A DNA stretch of 33,600 nt, from UHGV virus genome UHGV-1067530. The stretch is one strand, 5' to 3'. A program made the translations under genes and the position numbers. Under the pieces are notes generated by a model. It had not been told where the DNA came from, did no database searches, and was given only the letters and a program-made list of their open reading frames with translations. Within the stretch, counting starts at the first letter, position 1, and each line of letters begins with the position of its first letter. Of this stretch, positions 8,417 through 32,068 are shown piece by piece. Source of the DNA: a virus.

Positions 8417-9832
8417 ATGAGCGAATTATTTAAACATGCGCACCTTCATGCAGGTCGAACTGAAAATGGTGCTGTAAACCATACTTCATCAATGTCTGCT
8501 CTTGTAGACTTTTACAAAGCTGCTGGTTCAAGCCGTAGCAACGTAGAAATCTTACCAGACCTGTTCTACAAAGCTTTGCGTGAGGATGTTGATGTTGCAG
8601 TTCGTATTTTACTGCATATGCGAGATGTACGAGAAGGTATTGGTGAGCGTAAAGCCTTCAGAACTGTTTTGCTTCAAGCAATTGAAGATAAAGTTTTAGA
8701 GCCTACACAGGTTCTTCGCATTATGGATAAGATTGCAGAACTTGGTCGTTTTGATGACTTCAAAATCTTCGTAGGTACTCGTTTCGAGACAGATGCCTTC
8801 AAACATTTAGAAGCAGCATTACTAGACCCTGCAACAGCAGGTTTGGCAGCCAAGTGGCTACCACGAGTCAAACCACGTCATAAGCAGTTTGTAAAACGTT
8901 TCTGTAAGTTTGCCAACTTGAGTGAGAAAGAGTATCGCACACTGTTGTCTGCGCTCTCTGATACAGTTGAGCAAAAAATCTCTGCTAATGAGTTTGGCAA
9001 GATTGACTACAGTAAGATTCCTTCACTTGCTGCTGCACGTTACCAAAAACTGTTTAACCGCAAAGATGGAGAACGCTACAAAGCTTACATCGAGTCCTTA
9101 TCAAAGGGTGAGACTAAGATTAATGCTGGTGCTGTTTACCCATACGATGTGATTAAGTCTGTTAAGTATGGTAATGCAGATGTTGCTAATGAGCAGTGGA
9201 AAGCACTACCAAACTGGATGGCAGAGGGTGAAAACATTCTCTGTATGTCTGATGTTTCACGTTCAATGTCTTGGGTGAATTTTGGCTCCATTACTACTCT
9301 GGATATTGGTGTATCACTTGCATTGTATGTAGCAGAACGCAATACAGGTTGCTTTAAAAATGAGTTAATGGTTTACTCAACAAACCCTCACTTCATCGAA
9401 CTGAGTGGTGATTTACGAAACCGTCATCGTCAGGTGATGCGGCACGTTGAATATGGCTCAACTAACTTACAAGCAGCTTTTGACCGTATTCTTGAGACAG
9501 GTAAAAGAAATAACTTGACTCAGAAAGATATGCCAAGTAAGCTTATCATCTTCTCAGATATGGAGTTCAATCAGGTTGATGGAGCTAACGGTCGCACAAA
9601 CTTTGAAGCAATCCAGAGTAAGTACAAGAAAGCTGGATACGAAATGCCACAACTGGTATTCTGGTACTTAGCAAACCGTAATGGTACTTGCGAAGTATCT
9701 GTTAAGGATAACGGTGTAGCAATGGTATCTGGTTTCTCTCCAGCCACTTTAAAAGCTCTGCTTGGTGGTGAGAAGTTTGACCCTATCAGCGTAATGCTCA
9801 AAGCAGTAATGATTGACCGTTATATCTGGTAA
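8417..9832 (+). CDS. vWA-domain protein with N-terminal alpha-helical domain; possibly Ro60/TROVE-like (DUF2828-type)
   Basis: MIDAS motif in ILCMSDVSRSMS (DxSxS), downstream YGSTNL (T) and LIIFSDMEF (D) at vWA-typical spacing; N-terminal ~270 aa has no motif I recognise; the TROVE assignment is inference. Confidence 0.55.
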   Translation: MSELFKHAHLHAGRTENGAVNHTSSMSALVDFYKAAGSSRSNVEILPDLFYKALREDVDVAVRILLHMRDVREGIGERKAFRTVLLQAIEDKVLEPTQVLRIMDKIAELGRFDDFKIFVGTRFETDAFKHLEAALLDPATAGLAAKWLPRVKPRHKQFVKRFCKFANLSEKEYRTLLSALSDTVEQKISANEFGKIDYSKIPSLAAARYQKLFNRKDGERYKAYIESLSKGETKINAGAVYPYDVIKSVKYGNADVANEQWKALPNWMAEGENILCMSDVSRSMSWVNFGSITTLDIGVSLALYVAERNTGCFKNELMVYSTNPHFIELSGDLRNRHRQVMRHVEYGSTNLQAAFDRILETGKRNNLTQKDMPSKLIIFSDMEFNQVDGANGRTNFEAIQSKYKKAGYEMPQLVFWYLANRNGTCEVSVKDNGVAMVSGFSPATLKALLGGEKFDPISVMLKAVMIDRYIW

Positions 9833-9850
9833 AAAGTTTTAAAAAGGGTA

Positions 9851-9879
9851 TTGACAATGTGTTTGATACCCTTTAATAT
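9851..9879 (+). promoter_or_regulatory. Putative sigma70-like promoter heading the tRNA array
   Basis: TTGACA (9851-9856), 17-nt spacer, TAATAT (9874-9879); the -35 sits inside the inverted repeat GGGTAT...ATACCC. Confidence 0.45.
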
Positions 9880-9941
9880 GTTCTACATAGAAACGAAACG
9901 AGAGCTTTTCTAAGATACTGAAAAATATTTTAAAAAAGTTC

Positions 9942-9971
9942 TTGACAATCACTAAAAAATAATGTTAAAGT
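9942..9971 (+). promoter_or_regulatory. Putative second promoter upstream of tRNA-Pro
   Basis: aaaaaagttcTTGACA, 18-nt spacer, TAAAGT; same architecture as the 8348 promoter. Confidence 0.35.
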
Positions 9972-9997: not shown

Positions 9998-10074
9998 CTC
10001 TGTTTAGCTCAGCTTGGTAGAGCGTTCCGTTTGGGGCGGTAAGGCCGGAGGTTCAAGTCCTCCAACAGAGACCA
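9998..10074 (+). tRNA. tRNA-Pro (anticodon TGG)
   Basis: Acceptor CTCTGTT/AACAGAG, D-arm GCTC/GAGC, anticodon loop TTTGGGG, T-arm GGAGG-TTCAAGT-CCTCC, encoded CCA. Confidence 0.8.
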
Positions 10075-10081
10075 AATTAAT

Positions 10082-10159
10082 GTTCCAGTAGACAAAATGG
10101 TATAGTCACCACTCTTTCAAAGTGGATATTTGAGGGTTCAAATCCCTTCTGGAACGCCA
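10082..10159 (+). tRNA. tRNA-Glu (anticodon TTC)
   Basis: Acceptor GTTCCAG/CTGGAAC, anticodon stem CCACT/AGTGG, loop CTTTCAA, T-loop TTCAAAT, CCA. Confidence 0.8.
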
Positions 10160-10162
10160 GTT

Positions 10163-10239
10163 TTGACAGAAGACCAATTACAGCAAACTTAATCTTATTC
10201 ATCTGAAGGTAAATCGGACAAAGAAGAGATTTGGTCTGG
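10163..10239 (+). repeat. Inverted-repeat-bounded element, copy 1 (TTGACAGAAGACC-AA-TTACAGCAA ... TTGGTCTGG)
   Basis: 5' box CAGAAGACC + TTACAGCAA, 3' box GGTCTGG; termini AGACCAA/TTGGTCT are complementary. Confidence 0.6.
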
Positions 10240-10251
10240 TCATTAAGAATT

Positions 10252-10327
10252 GCGGGTATAGAGAAAGGGCGTCTCACATGTCTCATTAGCATGGTATCGG
10301 CAGGTTCGACTCCTGCACCCGCCTCCA
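10252..10327 (+). tRNA. tRNA-Met/Ile2-like (anticodon CAT), slightly irregular acceptor/T-stem register
   Basis: Acceptor GCGGGTA, D-arm GAGA/TCTC, anticodon stem CATGT/GCATG, loop CTCATTA, T-arm GCAGG-TTCGACT-CCTGC; 3' strand ACCCGCC pairs with a 1-nt offset. Confidence 0.5.
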
Positions 10328-10329
10328 AA

Positions 10330-10397
10330 TTTACAGAAGACCGTTTACAGCAATATTTATTAAATTTTTAGCGGAAAAATTGAAAGATGTGGTCTGG
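10330..10397 (+). repeat. Inverted-repeat-bounded element, copy 2 (TTTACAGAAGACCGTTTACAGCAA ... GGTCTGG)
   Basis: 5' 27 nt identical to copy 4; internal AT-rich hairpin AATTTTT/AAAAATT. Confidence 0.6.
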
Positions 10398-10410
10398 TAA
10401 TACTAAACAT

Positions 10411-10487
10411 GGTTAGGAAGCACATAAGGTATGTGCGGTCGCCTGTTAAGCGAATGGCACAGGGTTCGAATCCCTGACTAACCGCCA
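10411..10487 (+). tRNA. tRNA-Asn (anticodon GTT)
   Basis: Acceptor GGTTAGG/ACTAACC, D-arm GCAC/GTGC, anticodon loop CTGTTAA, T-arm CAGGG-TTCGAAT-CCCTG, discriminator G, CCA. Confidence 0.75.
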
Positions 10488-10556
10488 AATTTAGGAGAGA
10501 AGCGATTGCTCACCGATTTGTAAGGTGCAAGTCCTTAGCCTGAATAGAAATTAAAT

Positions 10557-10644
10557 GTGTCGTTATCCCGTAGATGGTAGCGGTGGGGACTGTAAATCCC
10601 TTGTCATTGAGACTCGGTAGGTTCGACTCCTACACGGCACACCA
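10557..10644 (+). tRNA. tRNA-Tyr (anticodon GTA), long variable arm
   Basis: Acceptor GTGTCGT/ACGGCAC, anticodon loop CTGTAAA, ~15-nt variable arm, T-arm GTAGG-TTCGACT-CCTAC, CCA. Confidence 0.7.
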
Positions 10645-10649
10645 ACAAA

Positions 10650-10727
10650 GGTTATGTAGTTTAATTTGGTTAAAATACTCCCCTGTCACGGGAGATGATG
10701 AGGGTTCAAATCCCTTCGTAACCGCCA
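10650..10727 (+). tRNA. tRNA-Asp (anticodon GTC)
   Basis: Acceptor GGTTATG/CGTAACC, anticodon stem CTCCC/GGGAG, loop CTGTCAC, T-loop TTCAAAT, CCA. Confidence 0.75.
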
Positions 10728-10788
10728 ATTTTGAGAGGGCTATTTAGCCCCTCCCTTAAAGAGTTCTTACGAGTATTCTTTAAAGGAG

Positions 10789-10862
10789 CAGAAGACCAAA
10801 TACAGCAAGTTACTTAAAATTTCAAGCCAATTTAATTTTGAAAAATTTAAAACTTGGTCTGG
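10789..10862 (+). repeat. Inverted-repeat-bounded element, copy 3 (CAGAAGACC-AAA-TACAGCAA ... TTGGTCTGG)
   Basis: Same terminal boxes; interior is a long AT-rich imperfect hairpin (CAAGTTACTTAAAATTTCAA / TTGAAAAATTTAAAACTTG). Confidence 0.6.
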
Positions 10863-10871
10863 CTCAACAAA

Positions 10872-11006
10872 TTTACAGAAGACCGTTTACAGCAAAACTT
10901 AAACAATCTATTTCTCGGTAAAGAAAAGGAGAAGGTTCGATTCCTTCACTCGGCAGGTGTCGAGTTGGTGTAATGGTAGCACTTAAGATGATAAACAACG
11001 GTCTGG
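10872..11006 (+). repeat. Inverted-repeat-bounded element, copy 4 (TTTACAGAAGACCGTT ... AACGGTCTGG), containing tRNA-like fragments
   Basis: 8-bp terminal complementarity AGACCGTT/AACGGTCT; interior holds a T-arm (GAAGG-TTCGATT-CCTTC) followed by a D-arm-like segment. Confidence 0.6.
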
Positions 11007-11007
11007 T

Positions 11008-11151
11008 AATTATCTTTGTAGATAAGTTATTAAGCTTACCTGTGAGTATGCGACCACAAAGGGTGAAAGGGTAAATTCTAGATTTAAACCCAAAAAGGCA
11101 CATCGCTACAGACCTTAAGCAAGTCTGGGTAGCTTATCTACAAAGATAATT
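11008..11151 (+). repeat. 19-bp perfect inverted repeat (AATTATCTTTGTAGATAAG / CTTATCTACAAAGATAATT) flanking 106 nt
   Basis: Read directly: 11008-11026 is the exact reverse complement of 11133-11151; the interior contains CAGACC...GTCTGG. Confidence 0.7.
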
Positions 11152-11155
11152 TAAT

Positions 11156-11231
11156 GGAAGTGTAGCAGAATGGTGATGCGGCAGACTTTTAATCTGACAG
11201 GCGATGGGTTCGAATCCCTCCACTTCTACCA
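11156..11231 (+). tRNA. tRNA-Lys (anticodon TTT)
   Basis: Acceptor GGAAGTG/CACTTCT (G1-U72 wobble), anticodon loop CTTTTAA, T-loop TTCGAAT, discriminator A, CCA. Confidence 0.7.
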
Positions 11232-11235
11232 ATAT

Positions 11236-11312
11236 GGTTCAGTCGCAGATAAGGTAATGCAAGGGTCTCATAAGCCCTATGAATGTGGGTTCGATTCCCA
11301 TCTGAACCTCCA
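11236..11312 (+). tRNA. tRNA-Met or Ile2 (anticodon CAT)
   Basis: Acceptor GGTTCAG/CTGAACC, anticodon stem AGGGT/GCCCT, loop CTCATAA, T-arm TGGG-TTCGATT-CCCA, CCA. Confidence 0.75.
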
Positions 11313-11314
11313 AT

Positions 11315-11389
11315 TGTGGGTTAGCATAAATGGTAATGCAAACGGCTGATAACCGTTAGAAGAGGGTTCGATACCCTCACCTACAACCA
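11315..11389 (+). tRNA. tRNA-Ile (anticodon GAT)
   Basis: Acceptor TGTGGGT/ACCTACA, D-arm GCA/TGC, anticodon stem AACGG/CCGTT, loop CTGATAA, T-arm GAGGG-TTCGATA-CCCTC, CCA. Confidence 0.75.
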
Positions 11390-11404
11390 ATTTCAATAAA
11401 GTTG

Positions 11405-11433
11405 TTGACATTGAGATGTGACTACTTTATAGT
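11405..11433 (+). promoter_or_regulatory. Putative sigma70-like promoter inside the tRNA array
   Basis: aaagttgTTGACA (11405-11410), 17-nt spacer, TATAGT (11428-11433). Confidence 0.45.
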
Positions 11434-11439
11434 AACTAA

Positions 11440-11726
11440 AATACTTCAGAATATGTATAATTCAAACACCAATACATGAGCGTTAGACGTAACACAATGT
11501 GGGGAAATTTGTTGTACATATTCTGAATAGTTTTCGTTGCGTAGCGTCTATTTTGCAAATTTAAAATAAATGCAAACGACAATGTTTTTCTGGCAGTAGC
11601 TTGATAGGCTAAACACCAGTGAGGTCTTCCAATCCCTCATCAAAGAATTTGGCGTACTAGCCCACGGTATGATTAATAAGGTGGGCATCTTTAAGGGCTT
11701 TCTAAGAGAGTCTTTAAAGATAATTA
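11440..11726 (+). ncRNA. Candidate structured non-coding RNA region (ORF-free, multiple hairpins)
   Basis: No ORF of 60 aa or more; 13-bp perfect inverted repeat TTCAGAATATGTA (11445-11457) / TACATATTCTGAA (11515-11527); hairpins GCCCAC...GTGGGC, TGAGG...CCTCA, TTTGCA...TGCAAA; sits downstream of the 11405 promoter. Confidence 0.35.
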
Positions 11727-11808
11727 CGGGGCGTATCTCAGCGGTCTTCTAAACCGCCGTTAACCGAGTAAGTGGAGTATGCGGGTTCGAGTCCTGCCGC
11801 CTCGACCA
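11727..11808 (+). tRNA. tRNA-like, Arg(TCT)-type anticodon arm, atypical (no canonical D-arm, 23-nt segment before the T-arm)
   Basis: Acceptor CGGGGCG/CGCCTCG, anticodon stem GCGGT/ACCGC with loop CTTCTAA, T-arm GCGGG-TTCGAGT-CCTGC, discriminator A, CCA; the D-arm 3' strand is not identifiable. Confidence 0.45.
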
Positions 11809-11950
11809 ATTAGTTAGCAGATTACTTAGACGACCTAAGCGGGTCTTCCTGTAGGGAGGTGGTCTGTATCTCATGTTTTCCAGAACATGTAAATAATCTG
11901 AGAAGGGGCTTTACAGTGTTGAGATAATACGGTAAGCTTCGAATTATAGT

Positions 11951-12033
11951 ATGGGACGATGTTAAGACTCTAAGGCATGAGCAACGGCTTCCAACACCGT
12001 TTCAAAGGGGTTCAACTCCTCCGTCCCATGCCA
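11951..12033 (+). tRNA. tRNA-like, Trp(CCA)-type anticodon loop, atypical (7 extra nt in the D region)
   Basis: Acceptor ATGGGAC/GTCCCAT perfect, hairpin ACGGC-TTCCAAC-ACCGT, T-arm AGGGG-TTCAACT-CCTCC, discriminator G, CCA; D region is 26 nt. Confidence 0.4.
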
Positions 12034-12046
12034 AAGTCTTATTAGG

Positions 12047-12134
12047 GGTAGGTAGCGGCTAATGGTAGCCAAACTGTCTTGAAAACAGTTGCCACTGTAG
12101 AGATACGGTGAGGGTTCGACTCCTTTACTTACCG
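12047..12134 (+). tRNA. tRNA-Ser (anticodon TGA), long variable arm; CCA not encoded
   Basis: Acceptor GGTAGGT/ACTTACC, anticodon stem ACTGT/ACAGT, loop CTTGAAA, ~20-nt variable arm, T-arm GAGGG-TTCGACT-CCTTT, discriminator G. Confidence 0.7.
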
Positions 12135-12137
12135 CCT

Positions 12138-12391
12138 AATAAGATTTAAAGCCAAGCTTCATTCGGATGTCGCTTTGGTATCCCGCGTGTATTGTCGTAC
12201 ACACTGATAAAACACCTAGTAGGTGTCACGGAGAAGAGATAATATCAAGCTCTCCAAAGGTTCTAGTCACCGGATTAAACAAGACTATGCAAAGACCTTT
12301 TTAGGTCTTTTTAGAGGGCTTCTAAGGTTATTACAGCTTGTTGTGGAACCTTGTTGCTTAGGTTCTTAGAAGTTCTCTAAAAAGATTTAAT
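12138..12391 (+). ncRNA. Candidate structured non-coding region (hairpins, terminator-like stem, long CTTCTAAG/CTTAGAAG hairpin)
   Basis: ORF-free; hairpins GTGTA...TACAC, ACACCTA...TAGGTGT, GGAGA...TCTCC; AAAGACC-TTTTT-AGGTCTTT followed by a T-run (about 12288-12312); inverted repeat CTTCTAAG (12320) / CTTAGAAG (12365). Confidence 0.3.
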
Positions 12392-12469
12392 GGGAGATTG
12401 ACGGTAATTGGTAAACCTACCATCCTTAGAAGTTGGTGTTTGAGGGTTCGAATCCCTTGTCTCCTACCA
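12392..12469 (+). tRNA. tRNA with Leu-type anticodon TAG but short (5-nt) variable loop
   Basis: Acceptor GGGAGAT/GTCTCCT, anticodon stem CCATC/GTTGG (one U-U), loop CTTAGAA, T-arm GAGGG-TTCGAAT-CCCTT, discriminator A, CCA. Confidence 0.55.
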
Positions 12470-12476
12470 AATTAAT

Positions 12477-12552
12477 GCAGGTGTAGCAAAATGGTTATGC
12501 GGCTGACTCTTAATCAGTAAGACGATGGGTTCAATTCCCTCCACCTGTACCA
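12477..12552 (+). tRNA. tRNA-Lys (anticodon CTT)
   Basis: Acceptor GCAGGTG/CACCTGT, anticodon stem GCTGA/TCAGT, loop CTCTTAA, T-loop TTCAATT, discriminator A, CCA; close paralog of the 11156 tRNA. Confidence 0.7.
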
Positions 12553-12558
12553 GACATT

Positions 12559-12634
12559 TGGGTCATAGTTTATATGGTTAAAATTCGAGTTTTGCAAACT
12601 TGGGAACTGAGTTCAATTCTCAGTGACTCCACCA
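12559..12634 (+). tRNA. tRNA-Ala (anticodon TGC)
   Basis: G3-U70 wobble present in the acceptor (TGGGTCA/TGACTCC), anticodon stem CGAGT/ACTTG, loop TTTGCAA, T-arm CTGAG-TTCAATT-CTCAG, discriminator A, CCA; 1-72 is unpaired (T/C). Confidence 0.7.
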
Positions 12635-12640
12635 ATTAGT

Positions 12641-12715
12641 GCATCCATAGTTTAAACGGGAAAATTACAGTCTTCCAAACTGAGGTTGAGGGTTCGATTC
12701 CCTCTGGATGCTCCA
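12641..12715 (+). tRNA. tRNA-Gly (anticodon TCC)
   Basis: Acceptor GCATCCA/TGGATGC perfect, anticodon loop CTTCCAA, T-arm GAGGG-TTCGATT-CCCTC, CCA. Confidence 0.75.
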
Positions 12716-12721
12716 AACAAT

Positions 12722-12798
12722 GCTGCTTTCGTATAATTGGCTATTACACATCCCTTGTAAGGATGGAAATGCAGGTTCGAGTCCTGTGAGCAGCACCA
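12722..12798 (+). tRNA. tRNA-Thr (anticodon TGT)
   Basis: Acceptor GCTGCTT/GAGCAGC, anticodon stem CATCC/GGATG, loop CTTGTAA, T-arm GCAGG-TTCGAGT-CCTGT, discriminator A, CCA. Confidence 0.8.
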
Positions 12799-12799
12799 A

Positions 12800-12893
12800 T
12801 TCAGAGGTCAAGTGAAAGACCGCTGGTGTCAACTGAAGACCGTAACAAATTCCACGGAGTTGAGTTAGCGGCACAACTTCAGACCTCTTTCAC
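12800..12893 (+). repeat. Repeat/palindrome-rich spacer related to the CAGAAGACC element family
   Basis: CTGAAGACCGTAACA (12836-) resembles the 5' box; AGAGGTC...GACCTCT and CTGAAG...CTTCAG inverted repeats. Confidence 0.4.
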
Positions 12894-12968
12894 ACTCGCT
12901 TAGTTTATATGGTAAAACATCACCCTTACAAGATGAAGAAAAAGGTTCAAGTCCTTTAGTGAGTACCA
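12894..12968 (+). tRNA. tRNA-Val (anticodon TAC)
   Basis: Acceptor ACTCGCT/AGTGAGT, D-stem GTTT, anticodon loop CTTACAA, T-arm AAAGG-TTCAAGT-CCTTT, discriminator A, CCA. Confidence 0.65.
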
Positions 12969-12969
12969 T

Positions 12970-13047
12970 GTTCCAGTATCCCAATTGGCAGAGGATGCAA
13001 GCTCAAACCTTGTATTAGTGACGGTTCGAATCCGTCTTGGAACACCA
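12970..13047 (+). tRNA. tRNA with Leu-type anticodon CAA but short (6-nt) variable loop
   Basis: Acceptor GTTCCAG/TTGGAAC, D-loop AATTGGCAGAG, anticodon stem TGCAAG/CTTGTA with loop CTCAAAC, T-arm GACGG-TTCGAAT-CCGTC, discriminator A, CCA. Confidence 0.55.
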
Positions 13048-13065
13048 ATTTAAAGAGGCTATTTA

Positions 13066-13623
13066 ATGAGATATTTGAAGTATGCTTCATGGATTTTCTT
13101 AGCTTTACTAGACCCAATTGCAGCAATCCTAGCAGTTATCTTAGCACCTTTCGTAGTTCCATTCTACAGTGAGAAGAAAGGACATCTACCTTTTGGATTC
13201 AGATGGATGGAGACCTATGACAACCCGATTGATGGTGACGAAGGTCACGTTAAAAGATGGGCTAAGATTAGAAAGATTGGTAAGCTGGGTGTCTACATGC
13301 AGAGAGTTGGGTGGCTCTGGAGAAACAAAGCTTATAACTTCTCTTACCATGTATTAGGAAGAGATGTAAAAGATGTTACTAAGTGGAGAGGTAATATCAA
13401 CGTAAGTTCTGACCCTGAAGATAATCAGACTGGTTATCTCCTAATGTGGAACAACAATGCTTGGGGATTATTCGCTTTTATTCCGTCAATTAAAGTCTTT
13501 GGTAAACAGTTTTACTGGAGAATTTATGTTGGATGGAAACTAAAAAGTGTTGTCCCAGAAGAAAGAGCATTCTCAAGGGAAAGAGTTATGTTGGCATTCT
13601 TTATTCATCCACTGAGAAAGTAA
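13066..13623 (+). CDS. hypothetical membrane protein (185 aa) embedded in the tRNA array
   Basis: ORF with RBS aaagagg upstream; N-terminal hydrophobic helix WIFLALLDPIAAILAVILAPFVVPF; Trp/Arg-rich remainder. Confidence 0.6.
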   Translation: MRYLKYASWIFLALLDPIAAILAVILAPFVVPFYSEKKGHLPFGFRWMETYDNPIDGDEGHVKRWAKIRKIGKLGVYMQRVGWLWRNKAYNFSYHVLGRDVKDVTKWRGNINVSSDPEDNQTGYLLMWNNNAWGLFAFIPSIKVFGKQFYWRIYVGWKLKSVVPEERAFSRERVMLAFFIHPLRK

Positions 13624-13631
13624 AGATTTAA

Positions 13632-13707
13632 AGGGGATTAGTTTACAAGGTTAAAACCTCGGTCTTTGAAATCGAAGAAGTTGGTTCAATTCCAACATCC
13701 CCCGCCA
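13632..13707 (+). tRNA. tRNA-Gln (anticodon TTG)
   Basis: Acceptor AGGGGAT/ATCCCCC with unpaired 1-72, discriminator G, anticodon stem TCGGT/ATCGA, loop CTTTGAA, T-arm GTTGG-TTCAATT-CCAAC, CCA. Confidence 0.7.
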
Positions 13708-13709
13708 AT

Positions 13710-13788
13710 GCTCCATTACTCCAATTGGCAGAGAGGCCAGACTTAAAATCTGTGTTATGTATCGGTTCGAATCCGATATGGAGTACCA
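13710..13788 (+). tRNA. tRNA with Leu-type anticodon TAA but short (7-nt) variable loop
   Basis: Acceptor GCTCCAT/ATGGAGT, D-loop AATTGGCAGAG, anticodon stem CCAGA/TCTGT, loop CTTAAAA, T-arm ATCGG-TTCGAAT-CCGAT, discriminator A, CCA. Confidence 0.55.
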
Positions 13789-13793
13789 ATTTT

Positions 13794-13869
13794 AGCGGTA
13801 TAGCATAACTGGCAATGCAGCAGTCTCTGAAGCTGTCCTATTAAGGTTCAAATCCTTATGCCGCTGCCA
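13794..13869 (+). tRNA. tRNA-Gln (anticodon CTG)
   Basis: Acceptor AGCGGTA/TGCCGCT, D-arm GCAT/ATGC, anticodon loop CTCTGAA, T-arm TAAGG-TTCAAAT-CCTTA, discriminator G, CCA. Confidence 0.7.
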
Positions 13870-13900
13870 CTTCTAAGGGTTCTTACGAGAGTCCTTAAAT

Positions 13901-13976
13901 GTGGCCTTATCATAAACGGTAATGACCCATGCTGTGAACATGGTCTATACGGGTTCAAATCCCGTAGGTCACCCCA
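13901..13976 (+). tRNA. tRNA-His (anticodon GTG)
   Basis: Acceptor GTGGCCT/AGGTCAC, D-arm TCAT/ATGA, anticodon stem CCATG/CATGG, loop CTGTGAA, T-arm ACGGG-TTCAAAT-CCCGT, discriminator C, CCA; position -1 is T, not G. Confidence 0.8.
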
Positions 13977-13981
13977 ATTTA

Positions 13982-14058
13982 TAGTCCAAGTAGCTTATAT
14001 GGTTAAAGCGCGTGTCTGAAAAACATGAGAAGAGGGTTCAAATCCCACTGGACTACCA
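13982..14058 (+). tRNA. tRNA-Phe (anticodon GAA), acceptor register slightly irregular
   Basis: D-arm GCTT/AAGC, anticodon stem CGTGT/ACATG, loop CTGAAAA, T-loop TTCAAAT; acceptor TAGTCCA/TGGACTA pairs perfectly but leaves a 4-nt linker before the D-stem. Confidence 0.6.
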
Positions 14059-14074
14059 ATTTCAAAGGTGCTTA

Positions 14075-14809
14075 ATGAAAGAGATGACAGGACAAGGTAA
14101 GGAGATTTTTAATCTCTTAAAAACCGGTAAAGGGTTTTCTAACCCACTTATTACTGGTGCAGCAGTTCTCGGTGGAACCGTAGCTGCCTCTACATCACTT
14201 GTAAGCTCTATTAGCTCTGTAACAGACCCGACAATGAATGAGAAACTTGTTGCTGCTGGACTTACAACAGTCCTTCTAAACAGCTTTACAACAAGCCTGA
14301 CAAGCACTACAGCAACTACTAAGACCCTAACAGACTATGGTCAAAAGTCTATTGATGAGTTTTCATCACGTATGCAGGTAGCAAAGGGGTATTCCAATGT
14401 TATGGGTGCAGCAGGAGAACAAGTTGGTTGTACACCATTCAGTGGTATTATGGGTGTTGCTACAGAGTATGGTCAAAAAGCTATTGACATGATTAACAGC
14501 ACACTAGACAGTGTTAACGGTGTGTTAAGTGACTTACAAGACGCTATTGATAAGGGTCTTGATACTGTTTCTGATTTAGCTAATCAAGCTGTTAGCAAGA
14601 TTAATGAAGGTATCTCAAAGATTACAGCTTATGCAGATGAAGTTGTGCAGATGATTGAAGAAGAAGCTGCCCTTATTGCAGAGTACCTTAAAACGAATAT
14701 CAATGGGTTCTTAGCAGGTATCTTACCAGACTGGTTTGATGATGCTCGCAAAACTGGTGTAATCGACACTATTGCAACACCAGAAATGAAGAACGCATTA
14801 CAGAAATAA
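14075..14809 (+). CDS. hypothetical Ser/Thr-rich protein (244 aa)
   Basis: The ORF track starts at 14012 inside tRNA-Phe; first ATG with an upstream aaagg RBS is 14075 (MKEMTGQ...); S/T-rich N-half, helical C-half. Confidence 0.55.
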   Translation: MKEMTGQGKEIFNLLKTGKGFSNPLITGAAVLGGTVAASTSLVSSISSVTDPTMNEKLVAAGLTTVLLNSFTTSLTSTTATTKTLTDYGQKSIDEFSSRMQVAKGYSNVMGAAGEQVGCTPFSGIMGVATEYGQKAIDMINSTLDSVNGVLSDLQDAIDKGLDTVSDLANQAVSKINEGISKITAYADEVVQMIEEEAALIAEYLKTNINGFLAGILPDWFDDARKTGVIDTIATPEMKNALQK

Positions 14810-14810
14810 T

Positions 14811-14903
14811 GGAAGATTAACCCTAAAAGGTAAGGGAGCAGTTTGCTAAACTGCCAGTAGCTGAGAAATCGGTGTACCAGTTCAAGTCTGGTATCTTCCT
14901 CCA
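14811..14903 (+). tRNA. tRNA-Ser (anticodon GCT), long variable arm
   Basis: Acceptor GGAAGAT/ATCTTCC perfect, D-stem CCC/GGG, anticodon stem GCAGT/ACTGC, loop TTGCTAA, ~20-nt variable arm, T-arm ACCAG-TTCAAGT-CTGGT, CCA. Confidence 0.8.
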
Positions 14904-14907
14904 ATCT

Positions 14908-14983
14908 GAATCCGTGACAGAAATGGATATGTGCCTGTCTGCAAAACAGGTTTATAAGGGTTCAAGTCCCTTCGGATTCTCCA
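14908..14983 (+). tRNA. tRNA-Cys (anticodon GCA)
   Basis: Acceptor GAATCCG/CGGATTC perfect, anticodon stem CCTGT/ACAGG, loop CTGCAAA, T-arm AAGGG-TTCAAGT-CCCTT, discriminator T, CCA. Confidence 0.8.

Positions 14984-26684: not shown

Positions 26685-32068
<5,384 letters not shown>

Follow-up and report, generated by a model that had tools for sequence, protein, structure and literature searches.

A conserved structured spacer in the tRNA array of Salmonella phage Mushroom as a candidate non-coding RNA gene of Felix O1-like bacteriophages

The DNA analysed here is a viral stretch of 33,600 nucleotides (UHGV virus genome UHGV-1067530; hereafter, the window), and the element under study is a long spacer located within its tRNA array. 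A 1.8-kb query around this spacer was 100% identical to the reverse strand of the record of Salmonella phage Mushroom (Felixounavirus; KP143762 / NC_041923), which identifies the window as belonging to this bacteriophage. The array comprises 24 tRNA genes on the + strand (9998-14983), and the genes, hairpins, promoters and spacers of the window located below by coordinates lie on this same strand. The 255 bases at 12137-12391 constitute the entire spacer between tRNA-Ser(tga) and tRNA-Leu(tag). The former (12047-12136) was delimited by ARAGORN, an Rfam tRNA match and the sequence itself, and its 3' end reads GCC-T, so that the final A of CCA is not encoded; the latter (12392-12469) was identified by ARAGORN. 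The evidence presented here suggests that the spacer is the gene for a structured non-coding RNA.

A preliminary description of the window, made from the sequence alone, had reported several consecutive hairpins between tRNA-Ser and the next tRNA. Seven hairpins are indeed present in the spacer, and its fold on the + strand (-71.3 kcal/mol) was better than that of each of 200 dinucleotide-preserving shuffles (-56.2 +/- 4.7 kcal/mol; z = -3.2; 0/200 as good). The z-score of the - strand was equal and, as a consequence, the folding energy by itself cannot pick the strand. The hairpins, named P1 to P7, were defined from alignments of the spacers of relatives, in which 14 annotated loci and 28 IMG/VR loci gave 36 distinct spacers; three further loci came from public read-set assemblies and were reached via homologues of the neighbouring Ro-like protein. 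Two of these three, L044 and L048, represent a much more distant lineage. The alignments revealed two contrasting kinds of modules, structure-only hairpins at the ends and a sequence-conserved core between them. The structure of the spacer exceeds chance, as evidenced by the z-scores of P1 and P7 and by compensatory changes in P5 and P7.

The spacer begins with an A/U-rich single-stranded tail, TAATAAGATTTAAA (12137-12150), which is almost invariant in the alignment and is a candidate zone for RNase E cleavage or 3'-trimming. This tail includes AAGATTTAA, a motif that recurs at 12382 and 13623 immediately before tRNAs; the window holds exactly three copies of it, all in the array and two of them directly 5' of a tRNA. 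The hairpin P1 (12151-12179) was established by per-variant folds, z-scores and the alignment. At least six unrelated stem sequences were found for it among the relatives, and a hairpin was formed in every one of the 19-20 distinct versions (-7.3 to -15 kcal/mol). Its mean z-score over 19 distinct sequences was -2.15, with values below -1.64 in 14 of the 19.

At the opposite end, P7 (12308-12383), deduced from the fold and from covariation, is a long hairpin, variable at its top, whose lower helix comprises 20 pairs (12308-12327 / 12364-12383), and the first three T of P7 also close P6. The sequences CTTCTAAG (12319-12326) and CTTAGAAG (12365-12372), which the preliminary description had paired in a long hairpin, both lie within this helix. 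Its pairs were counted outward from fixed anchors, a procedure independent of any alignment, and 16-20 consecutive pairs were obtained in 8/8 variants; positions 4, 9, 10, 11, 14, 16 and 17 each showed two or three standard pair types. The P7 of L044 (TTTGTAGATGGCTAC / GTAGCCATCTACAAA) has almost nothing in common with the sequence of that of the window, yet its pairing is perfect. The mean z-score of P7 over 12 distinct sequences was -5.0. At a length of 16-20 pairs across the variants (20 in the window), the predicted helix has the shape of an RNase III substrate (about two turns of near-perfect duplex), and it may be an RNase III site or a stem protecting the 3' end. After P7, the sequence and the alignment define an 8-nt leader, GATTTAAT (12384-12391), at whose 3' end RNase P would cut to give tRNA-Leu.

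The core formed by P2 to P6 (12187-12310, approximately 125 nt) is, unlike P1 and P7, almost invariant, and its hairpins were delimited in the alignment. In P2 (GTGTAT-TGTC-GTACAC, 12187-12202) the stem changes were A-U to G-U and U-A to U-G, and no others. P2 is followed by a hypervariable linker (12203-12211) with indels of 1, 2, 3 and 5 nt and by P3 (ACACCT-AGT-AGGTGT, 12212-12226), invariant save for the closing pair, which is A-U or G-U. P4 is a two-tier hairpin (GGAGA..GAT-AAT-ATC..TCTCC, 12230-12255) whose substitutions are limited to the apical loop (AAT, AGT, AGC or GAT), and P5 (12260-12290) has an inner stem TAGTC/GACTA and a nearly invariant 14-nt loop, ACCGGATTAAACAA. The last hairpin of the core, P6 (AAAGACC-TTTTTA-GGTCTTT, 12291-12310), is the terminator-like hairpin that the preliminary description had pointed out, and the run of T mentioned there corresponds to the five T at 12308-12312. 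Only wobble changes were found in its conserved stem, whereas its loop varies in both sequence and length (4-6 nt). The energy of P6 is -9.3 kcal/mol when the A-U pairs are included and -5.3 kcal/mol for the GACC/GGTC part.

At the nucleotide level, the core of the window is 90-91% identical to those of L044 and L048, compared with 96% for tRNA-Ser, 80% for TerL and 67% for the Ro-like gene. Moogle- and Susp-type phages have a background identity of 81-86% to the window, and their cores differ only in the linker after P2, the apical loop of P4, a few positions of the P5 loop and the loop of P6. Among 33 distinct cores, 99.8% of the pair cells held standard pairs, although the alignment behind this figure was fitted to the model and is hence biased towards it. 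Variable columns of the core were 25 of 62 when unpaired and 13 of 68 when paired (Fisher p = 0.012), and P5 shows in L044 and L048 a two-sided compensatory change from U-A to C-G. The one-sided changes in stems were A-U/G-U, C-G/U-G, G-C/G-U or U-A/U-G, and likewise in P7. Since these wobbles would be A-C mismatches on the - strand, the constraint acts on RNA of the + strand, the strand of the tRNAs.

Searching with blastn, the spacer was detected in 254 phage records, all of them Ounavirinae-type genomes of approximately 85-90 kb (Felixounavirus, Mooglevirus and Suspvirus), including the BASEL-collection phage JohannRWettstein/Bas63 and other isolates grown on Escherichia coli K-12 MG1655. 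A covariance model of the core (R1) detected the element in L044, L048 and L051 as well as in every Felixounavirus, Mooglevirus and Suspvirus locus. It gave no match in Erwinia phage SunLIRen (Kolesnikvirus), with the filters off too, nor in four loci of the lineage resembling Yersinia phage P778; in two of the latter, L045 and L046, the tRNA scan placed the next tRNA 13 nt past tRNA-Ser(tga). A 17-mer scan of metagenome contigs yielded 78 loci, 22 of which were real, none being more divergent than the known copies. The element is thus an accessory gene of one clade. In addition, the core and P7 gave no blastn match among 5,426 E. coli genomes and, therefore, there is no sign of host mimicry or of prophage origin.

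The nearest upstream promoter found by the scan is a strong sigma-70-like one (TTGACA-17-TATAGT, 11405-11433), which corresponds to P45 of the Felix O1 paper (PMC3185647) and is probably the source of the transcript covering the spacer. The strong sigma-70-like promoters in the scan were those at 9851, 9942 and 11405. The scan revealed none between 12312 and the next seven tRNAs, and no sigma-70 promoter was seen within P7 or the leader, either by scan or by eye. As no such promoter follows the spacer, the seven downstream tRNAs need read-through, and an efficient termination at P6 would silence them and, in phages Michonne and EcSzw-2, also an HNH gene inserted after the spacer. In Felix O1, reverse transcription PCR (RT-PCR) products were reported for predicted open reading frames (ORFs), and ORFs 45 and 46 were among those maximal at 5 min (PMC3185647). 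Because ORF46 is annotated over the spacer, this result indicates that the region is transcribed early.

The preliminary description considered that the spacer could divide the array into transcription units or encode a small RNA. The second possibility is the one favoured by the conserved core, the covariation, the wobbles of the + strand and the lack of a conserved ORF, and a transcription-unit boundary at the spacer is unlikely. The stem-loop-stem layout followed by TTTTT at 12291-12312 does recall a Rho-independent terminator, small and bidirectional in appearance, and a conserved multi-helix core immediately 5' of a terminator-like hairpin is the arrangement of many riboswitches, so that P6 and its T-run could end or regulate a unit of the array as a terminator or attenuator, with the core as a riboswitch-like sensor. 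The energy of P6 is also near that obtained with the same program for the annotated Felix O1 terminator t116 (-9.9 kcal/mol). However, two independent predictions omit P6: it was not reported by the consensus terminator scan and it is missing from the TransTerm-based list published for Felix O1, whose 17 terminators all lie outside this region (PMC3185647). The 7-pair stem is A/U-rich, with three G-C pairs only, and the five T are shared by two helices instead of forming a free tail, three being inside the P6 stem and all five pairing with the A at 12379-12383 in the base of P7. Neither is the U-tract conserved, since it reads TTTG in L044 and L048, where the partner run is CAAA, a change compensated with the 3' strand of P7. 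Considering also that no riboswitch family matches the spacer and that, as indicated above, no sigma-70-like promoter follows it, a regulatory terminator is an improbable explanation, and P6 is better regarded as a structural hairpin that would be at most a leaky pause or terminator able to give the core a 3' end. The idea that the spacer encodes a small protein fares worse still and can hardly be entertained. It comes from ORFs of 45 and 48 amino acids (aa) that are open in the window at the spacer, and from several GenBank records in which a coding sequence (CDS) or 'hypothetical protein' is annotated over it, such as 'ORF46' of the Felix O1 RefSeq record (26690-26887), which takes in the final 29 nt of tRNA-Ser and extends up to and including the 5' half of P6. 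Hence, the stretch is not free of ORFs in the mechanical sense in which it had been so described, but none of these ORFs is conserved. The start of the ORF46-like frame varies (ATG, TTG, GTG or none), its end differs among phages, and some variants have no ORF of at least 25 aa in this frame; the frame opened by GTG terminates variously, 26 to 52 codons downstream, and this invariant GTG lacks a properly spaced ribosome-binding site upstream. Moreover, the linker carries indels of 1, 2, 3 and 5 nt and the few substitutions of the core are non-synonymous in both open frames, so the spacer variants present neither a conserved frame, start and stop nor a synonymous bias.

An anti-terminator pairing, AAAGGT/ACCTTT, which appeared in the fold of the single sequence, was rejected because its partner sits in the variable loop of P6 and is not conserved. 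The Rfam scan that had been proposed as a check was carried out; with Rfam 15 at the gathering threshold, the window yielded tRNAs only and nothing in the spacer. At a permissive setting (E <= 10), the spacer matches were plant microRNA hairpin models on P7, the best of them with 32.7 bits against a threshold of 52; MIR473 and the other microRNA matches were discarded as generic long-hairpin matches well under threshold. The literature searched contained neither a transcriptome study nor a small-RNA study on phages of the Felix O1 type. The element is a well-supported RNA family found neither in Rfam 15 nor in that literature.

The explanation that we prefer, with a probability of about 0.55, is that the spacer is the gene for a structured non-coding RNA that is co-transcribed with the tRNAs on the + strand and released by the nucleases of tRNA maturation. 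Transcription would likely start either at the 11405 promoter or at the ones that precede the array. RNase P would cut at 12391/12392, the 5' end of tRNA-Leu, RNase E or exonucleases would act in the A/U-rich tails, and RNase III could cut the 20-pair helix of P7. The product, possibly stable as a discrete species, would measure roughly 130-250 nt, and its conserved core would act sequence-specifically and perhaps in trans. Its functional part would be the core P2-P6 (about 12187-12310), and since the loops and junctions of the core are conserved by nucleotide, it probably adopts a specific tertiary fold or is recognized by a protein or by another RNA. P1 and P7 would be required only as helices, most likely for insulating the core from the adjoining tRNAs and for protecting or defining the ends.

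Several points weigh against this explanation. Variation in the core is so scarce that it offers almost no double-sided covariation, and thus the evidence for P2-P4 and P6 consists of conservation and wobble changes, to which P5 adds one compensatory pair. Frequent recombination in the array, manifested in swaps of tRNA alleles, could inflate the apparent conservation. The absence of the element from Kolesnikvirus and from the P778-like lineage means that it is not required for the expression of tRNA arrays in general. Finally, the RT-PCR of ORF46 was possibly not strand-specific, a plain precursor would also score positive in it, and it says nothing on processing.

The strongest competitor, although we judge it unlikely, is that the spacer is a purely cis-acting processing or insulating element, whose hairpins would steer or hinder exonucleases and the RNases E, III and P, allowing tRNA-Ser and tRNA-Leu to mature properly, and whose excised piece would be degraded without having any function of its own. 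P1 and P7 do behave as structure-only helices, P7 is long enough for RNase III, AAGATTTAA is found in the A/U-rich tails and also before tRNA-Gln at 13623, and a similar hairpin plus AAAGATAATTAC leader precedes the tRNA-like gene at 11727. However, a processing spacer needs shape only, yet approximately 100 nt of the core, including the 14-nt loop and the junctions, are nearly invariant while neighbouring genes diverge to 67-80%. This difference between the structure-only P1 and P7 and the sequence-specific core is the main argument for something more than a processing spacer. Related phages also have tRNA-Ser(tga) 13 nt from the next tRNA without such a spacer, and in Michonne and EcSzw-2 the element is still conserved even though a 453-nt HNH gene parts it from tRNA-Leu. 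Another possibility is that the conservation operates on the DNA, with the core as a recognition or co-conversion region for the homing endonucleases of the array or as another DNA site, its similarity being due to frequent gene conversion instead of to an RNA function. HNH endonuclease genes occupy several places of the array, in Michonne and EcSzw-2 directly after the spacer, and the neighbouring tRNAs swap alleles, being either 100% or about 54% identical. Nevertheless, the element is conserved with or without an adjacent HNH gene, the boundaries of the conserved block are equally sharp in every lineage, with the divergent P1 and P7 within 10-30 nt, and the substitutions respect RNA pairing with wobbles compatible with a single strand, a restriction that would not be needed for a DNA site. 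A DNA-level cause is, in consequence, very improbable, far more so than a processing spacer.

If the spacer is the gene for a non-coding RNA, a partner for it might be sought at the head of the tRNA array, where a gene at 8417-9832 encodes a 471-aa protein with DUF2828 and DUF7788 and, according to Pfam, AlphaFold and Foldseek, a Ro60-like fold (TROVE ring plus von Willebrand factor A domain, vWA). The AlphaFold model had a pLDDT of 88 and a pTM of 0.87, and its 12 best PDB matches with Foldseek were all Ro60/TROVE proteins over the full length (E from 5e-8 to 6e-6, TM up to 0.64), including Thermus phage phiLo Ro60, Xenopus Ro60 and Deinococcus Rsr. Homologues of this protein are already annotated as 'Ro-like RNA binding protein', so its Ro-like identity is not new. 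The gene order (DUF5681 gene, Ro-like gene, tRNA array, DUF7217 gene and TerL) is kept in the distant relatives L044-L051. Ro60 proteins work with Y RNAs, which are usually encoded nearby, and Y-like RNAs have been described near phage Ro60 homologues (PMC4201824, PMC12135203). In mycobacteriophage Lolly9, whose locus served as a control, we found a sub-threshold match to the Y-like RNA model YrlA (37.7 bits, E = 1e-5) right after the homologous Ro-like gene. The element of Mushroom resembles Y RNAs in being a candidate multi-helix non-coding RNA. A Ro60-fold gene lies 2.3 kb upstream on the same strand, with at least ten tRNA genes in between, but L045, L046, L049 and L050, four relatives in which the Ro-like gene is retained, lack the element. 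YrlA (Rfam RF02553) gave no match in 12137-12391 even at E = 10, and the Ro-binding motif GNCGAA(N)G / CGAA is absent from the spacer, where the nearest string is GTCGTA / GGCGTA in P2. No supported stem closes the 5' and 3' ends of the spacer, the six A-U/G-U pairs predicted there being invariant, and the spacer contains no tRNA module similar to a T-arm or D-arm. We consider as a long shot that the core is an RNA partner or regulator of the Ro60-like protein, that is, a Y-RNA analogue of new architecture located in a tRNA operon, the ribonucleoprotein acting on tRNA quality control or recruiting host exonucleases such as PNPase in the course of infection, and possibly countering tRNA-targeting defences of the host.

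Just 5' of tRNA-Ser(tga), the sequence at 11942-12026 is tRNA-like, although neither ARAGORN nor Rfam called it. Its acceptor pairing is ATGGGAC/GTCCCAT, with GCCA after it, GGGGTTCAACTCCTC resembles a T-arm, and five pairs (AACGG/CCGTT) form a stem capped by the 9-nt loop CTTCCAACA; the whole is conserved in that position even in the distant L045, L046, L049 and L050. It may represent either an unusual tRNA or something that mimics a tRNA, and it is a candidate YrlA-like module.

The closest analogues of the element are rnaC and rnaD of bacteriophage T4 (species 1 and species 2), which are not its homologues. In the T4 tRNA cluster, where both are annotated as small stable RNAs, they abut tRNA-Arg and have the homing endonuclease gene segB as a neighbour. 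The Felix-type element is likewise a non-coding, structured candidate of the 120-140 nt class that lies in a phage tRNA cluster, on the tRNA strand and abutting a tRNA, and without a promoter of its own; in addition, HNH genes are present in Felix-type arrays as segB is in the T4 cluster. The species 1 RNA of T4 is an RNase III substrate in vitro, for which the long P7 helix may offer a parallel. However, R1 scored at most 9.8 bits against the T4 tRNA cluster, with that match outside rnaC and rnaD, and the folds differ, since rnaC has a T-arm and an acceptor-like closing helix and the Felix-type element has neither. P7 also resembles the RNase III stems of T7 early transcripts and of rRNA operon spacers in having about 20 pairs plus an internal loop, in being maintained by covariation and in its predicted location between functional RNAs of a polycistronic precursor, but this resemblance is one of shape only.

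In SunLIRen, L043:5276-5445 presents ends like those of a tRNA (a pairing that resembles an acceptor, and the T-arm GGTTCGAATCC with GCCA after it) around an insert of approximately 130 nt, which recalls T4 rnaC. This sequence is unannotated and was not called by ARAGORN.

Felix O1-like phages are a classic tool for typing Salmonella and are in wide use for biocontrol. Their records either leave the element without annotation or wrongly label it a hypothetical protein, and the 'ORF46'-type CDS annotations over the spacer should be removed. With it, the few known non-tRNA RNAs of phage tRNA clusters gain a new member. To our knowledge, no function has been assigned to the T4 cluster RNAs in fifty years, and an additional, unrelated family carried by phages of E. 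coli K-12 offers a fresh and tractable route to what such RNAs do. It also opens the questions of whether these RNAs are linked to the Ro60-like protein, or bear on phage tRNAs as a counter-defence, a subject of current interest.

Other observations concern the surroundings of the spacer. In Michonne (L002:798-1263) and EcSzw-2 (L004:809-1274), the HNH endonuclease gene lies between the spacer and tRNA-Leu, and at the insertion the first 11 nt of tRNA-Leu (GGGAGATTGAC) are duplicated, the annotated ribosome-binding site being within that copy. Two unrelated alleles of tRNA-Leu(tag), about 54% identical, follow the same spacer in different phages (12392-12469 in the window; relatives L001, L003, L005 and L011), and tRNA-Ala and tRNA-Thr also switch alleles (about 70-75% versus 96-100% identity). 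The exchange of alleles appears to have its boundaries at the edges of the tRNA genes. Antisense 11-13-mers of the spacer were compared with the rest of the window, and 15 matches of 11 nt, several of them overlapping, were found against a rough chance estimate of approximately 4, with none at 13 nt; no weight was given to these matches.

Upstream in the array, a structured ORF-poor block (11528-11726; z = -3.6) ends in a hairpin and a AAAGATAATTAC leader that resemble P7 and its leader. Its segment 11528-11687 is 95% identical to Susp-type loci, with a background of 83-86%, and 11528-11656 is 80% identical in SunLIRen (L043:5487-5615). As the block is kept in this phage, it is conserved more deeply than the element at 12137-12391. 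A paralogy of the latter with the structured spacer 11520-11726 was discarded, as the score of the local alignment was reached by 40/500 shuffles and only TTTA(G)AGGGCTT(T)CTAAG was in common. The block is followed at 11727-11805 by a weak tRNA that Rfam scored at 31.7 bits and that ARAGORN did not call. It carries TCT in its anticodon loop and an additional insertion, at the place where relatives have a normal tRNA-Arg(tct), and sub-threshold matches to the tmRNA model were obtained at 11536-11725 and 11727-11808. The motif GGAGGTGGTCTGTATCTC is common to the arrays of Mushroom (11856-11873) and SunLIRen (L043:5817-5834), being followed in Mushroom by ATG and a six-codon ORF.

Before the first tRNA, region 9831-9971 contains two strong promoter-like sites in tandem, both preceded by an A/T-rich stretch (repeat AAAAAGTTTTAAAAAGGGTATTGACAAT). 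The first of these sites overlaps a 12-pair hairpin that corresponds to the bidirectional terminators t42/t43 of the Felix O1 paper (PMC3185647). A repeat of approximately 60 nt, CAAATTTACAGAAGACCGTTTACAGCAA...GGTCTGG, occurs four times among the spacers with which the array begins (10159-10239, 10326-10397, 10789-10862 and 10868-10914), and two of these copies gave weak hairpin-type Rfam matches. Finally, the 95-nt spacer between tRNA-Thr and tRNA-Val (12799-12893) showed 91-95% identity across Moogle- and Susp-type phages, compared with a background of 81-86%.

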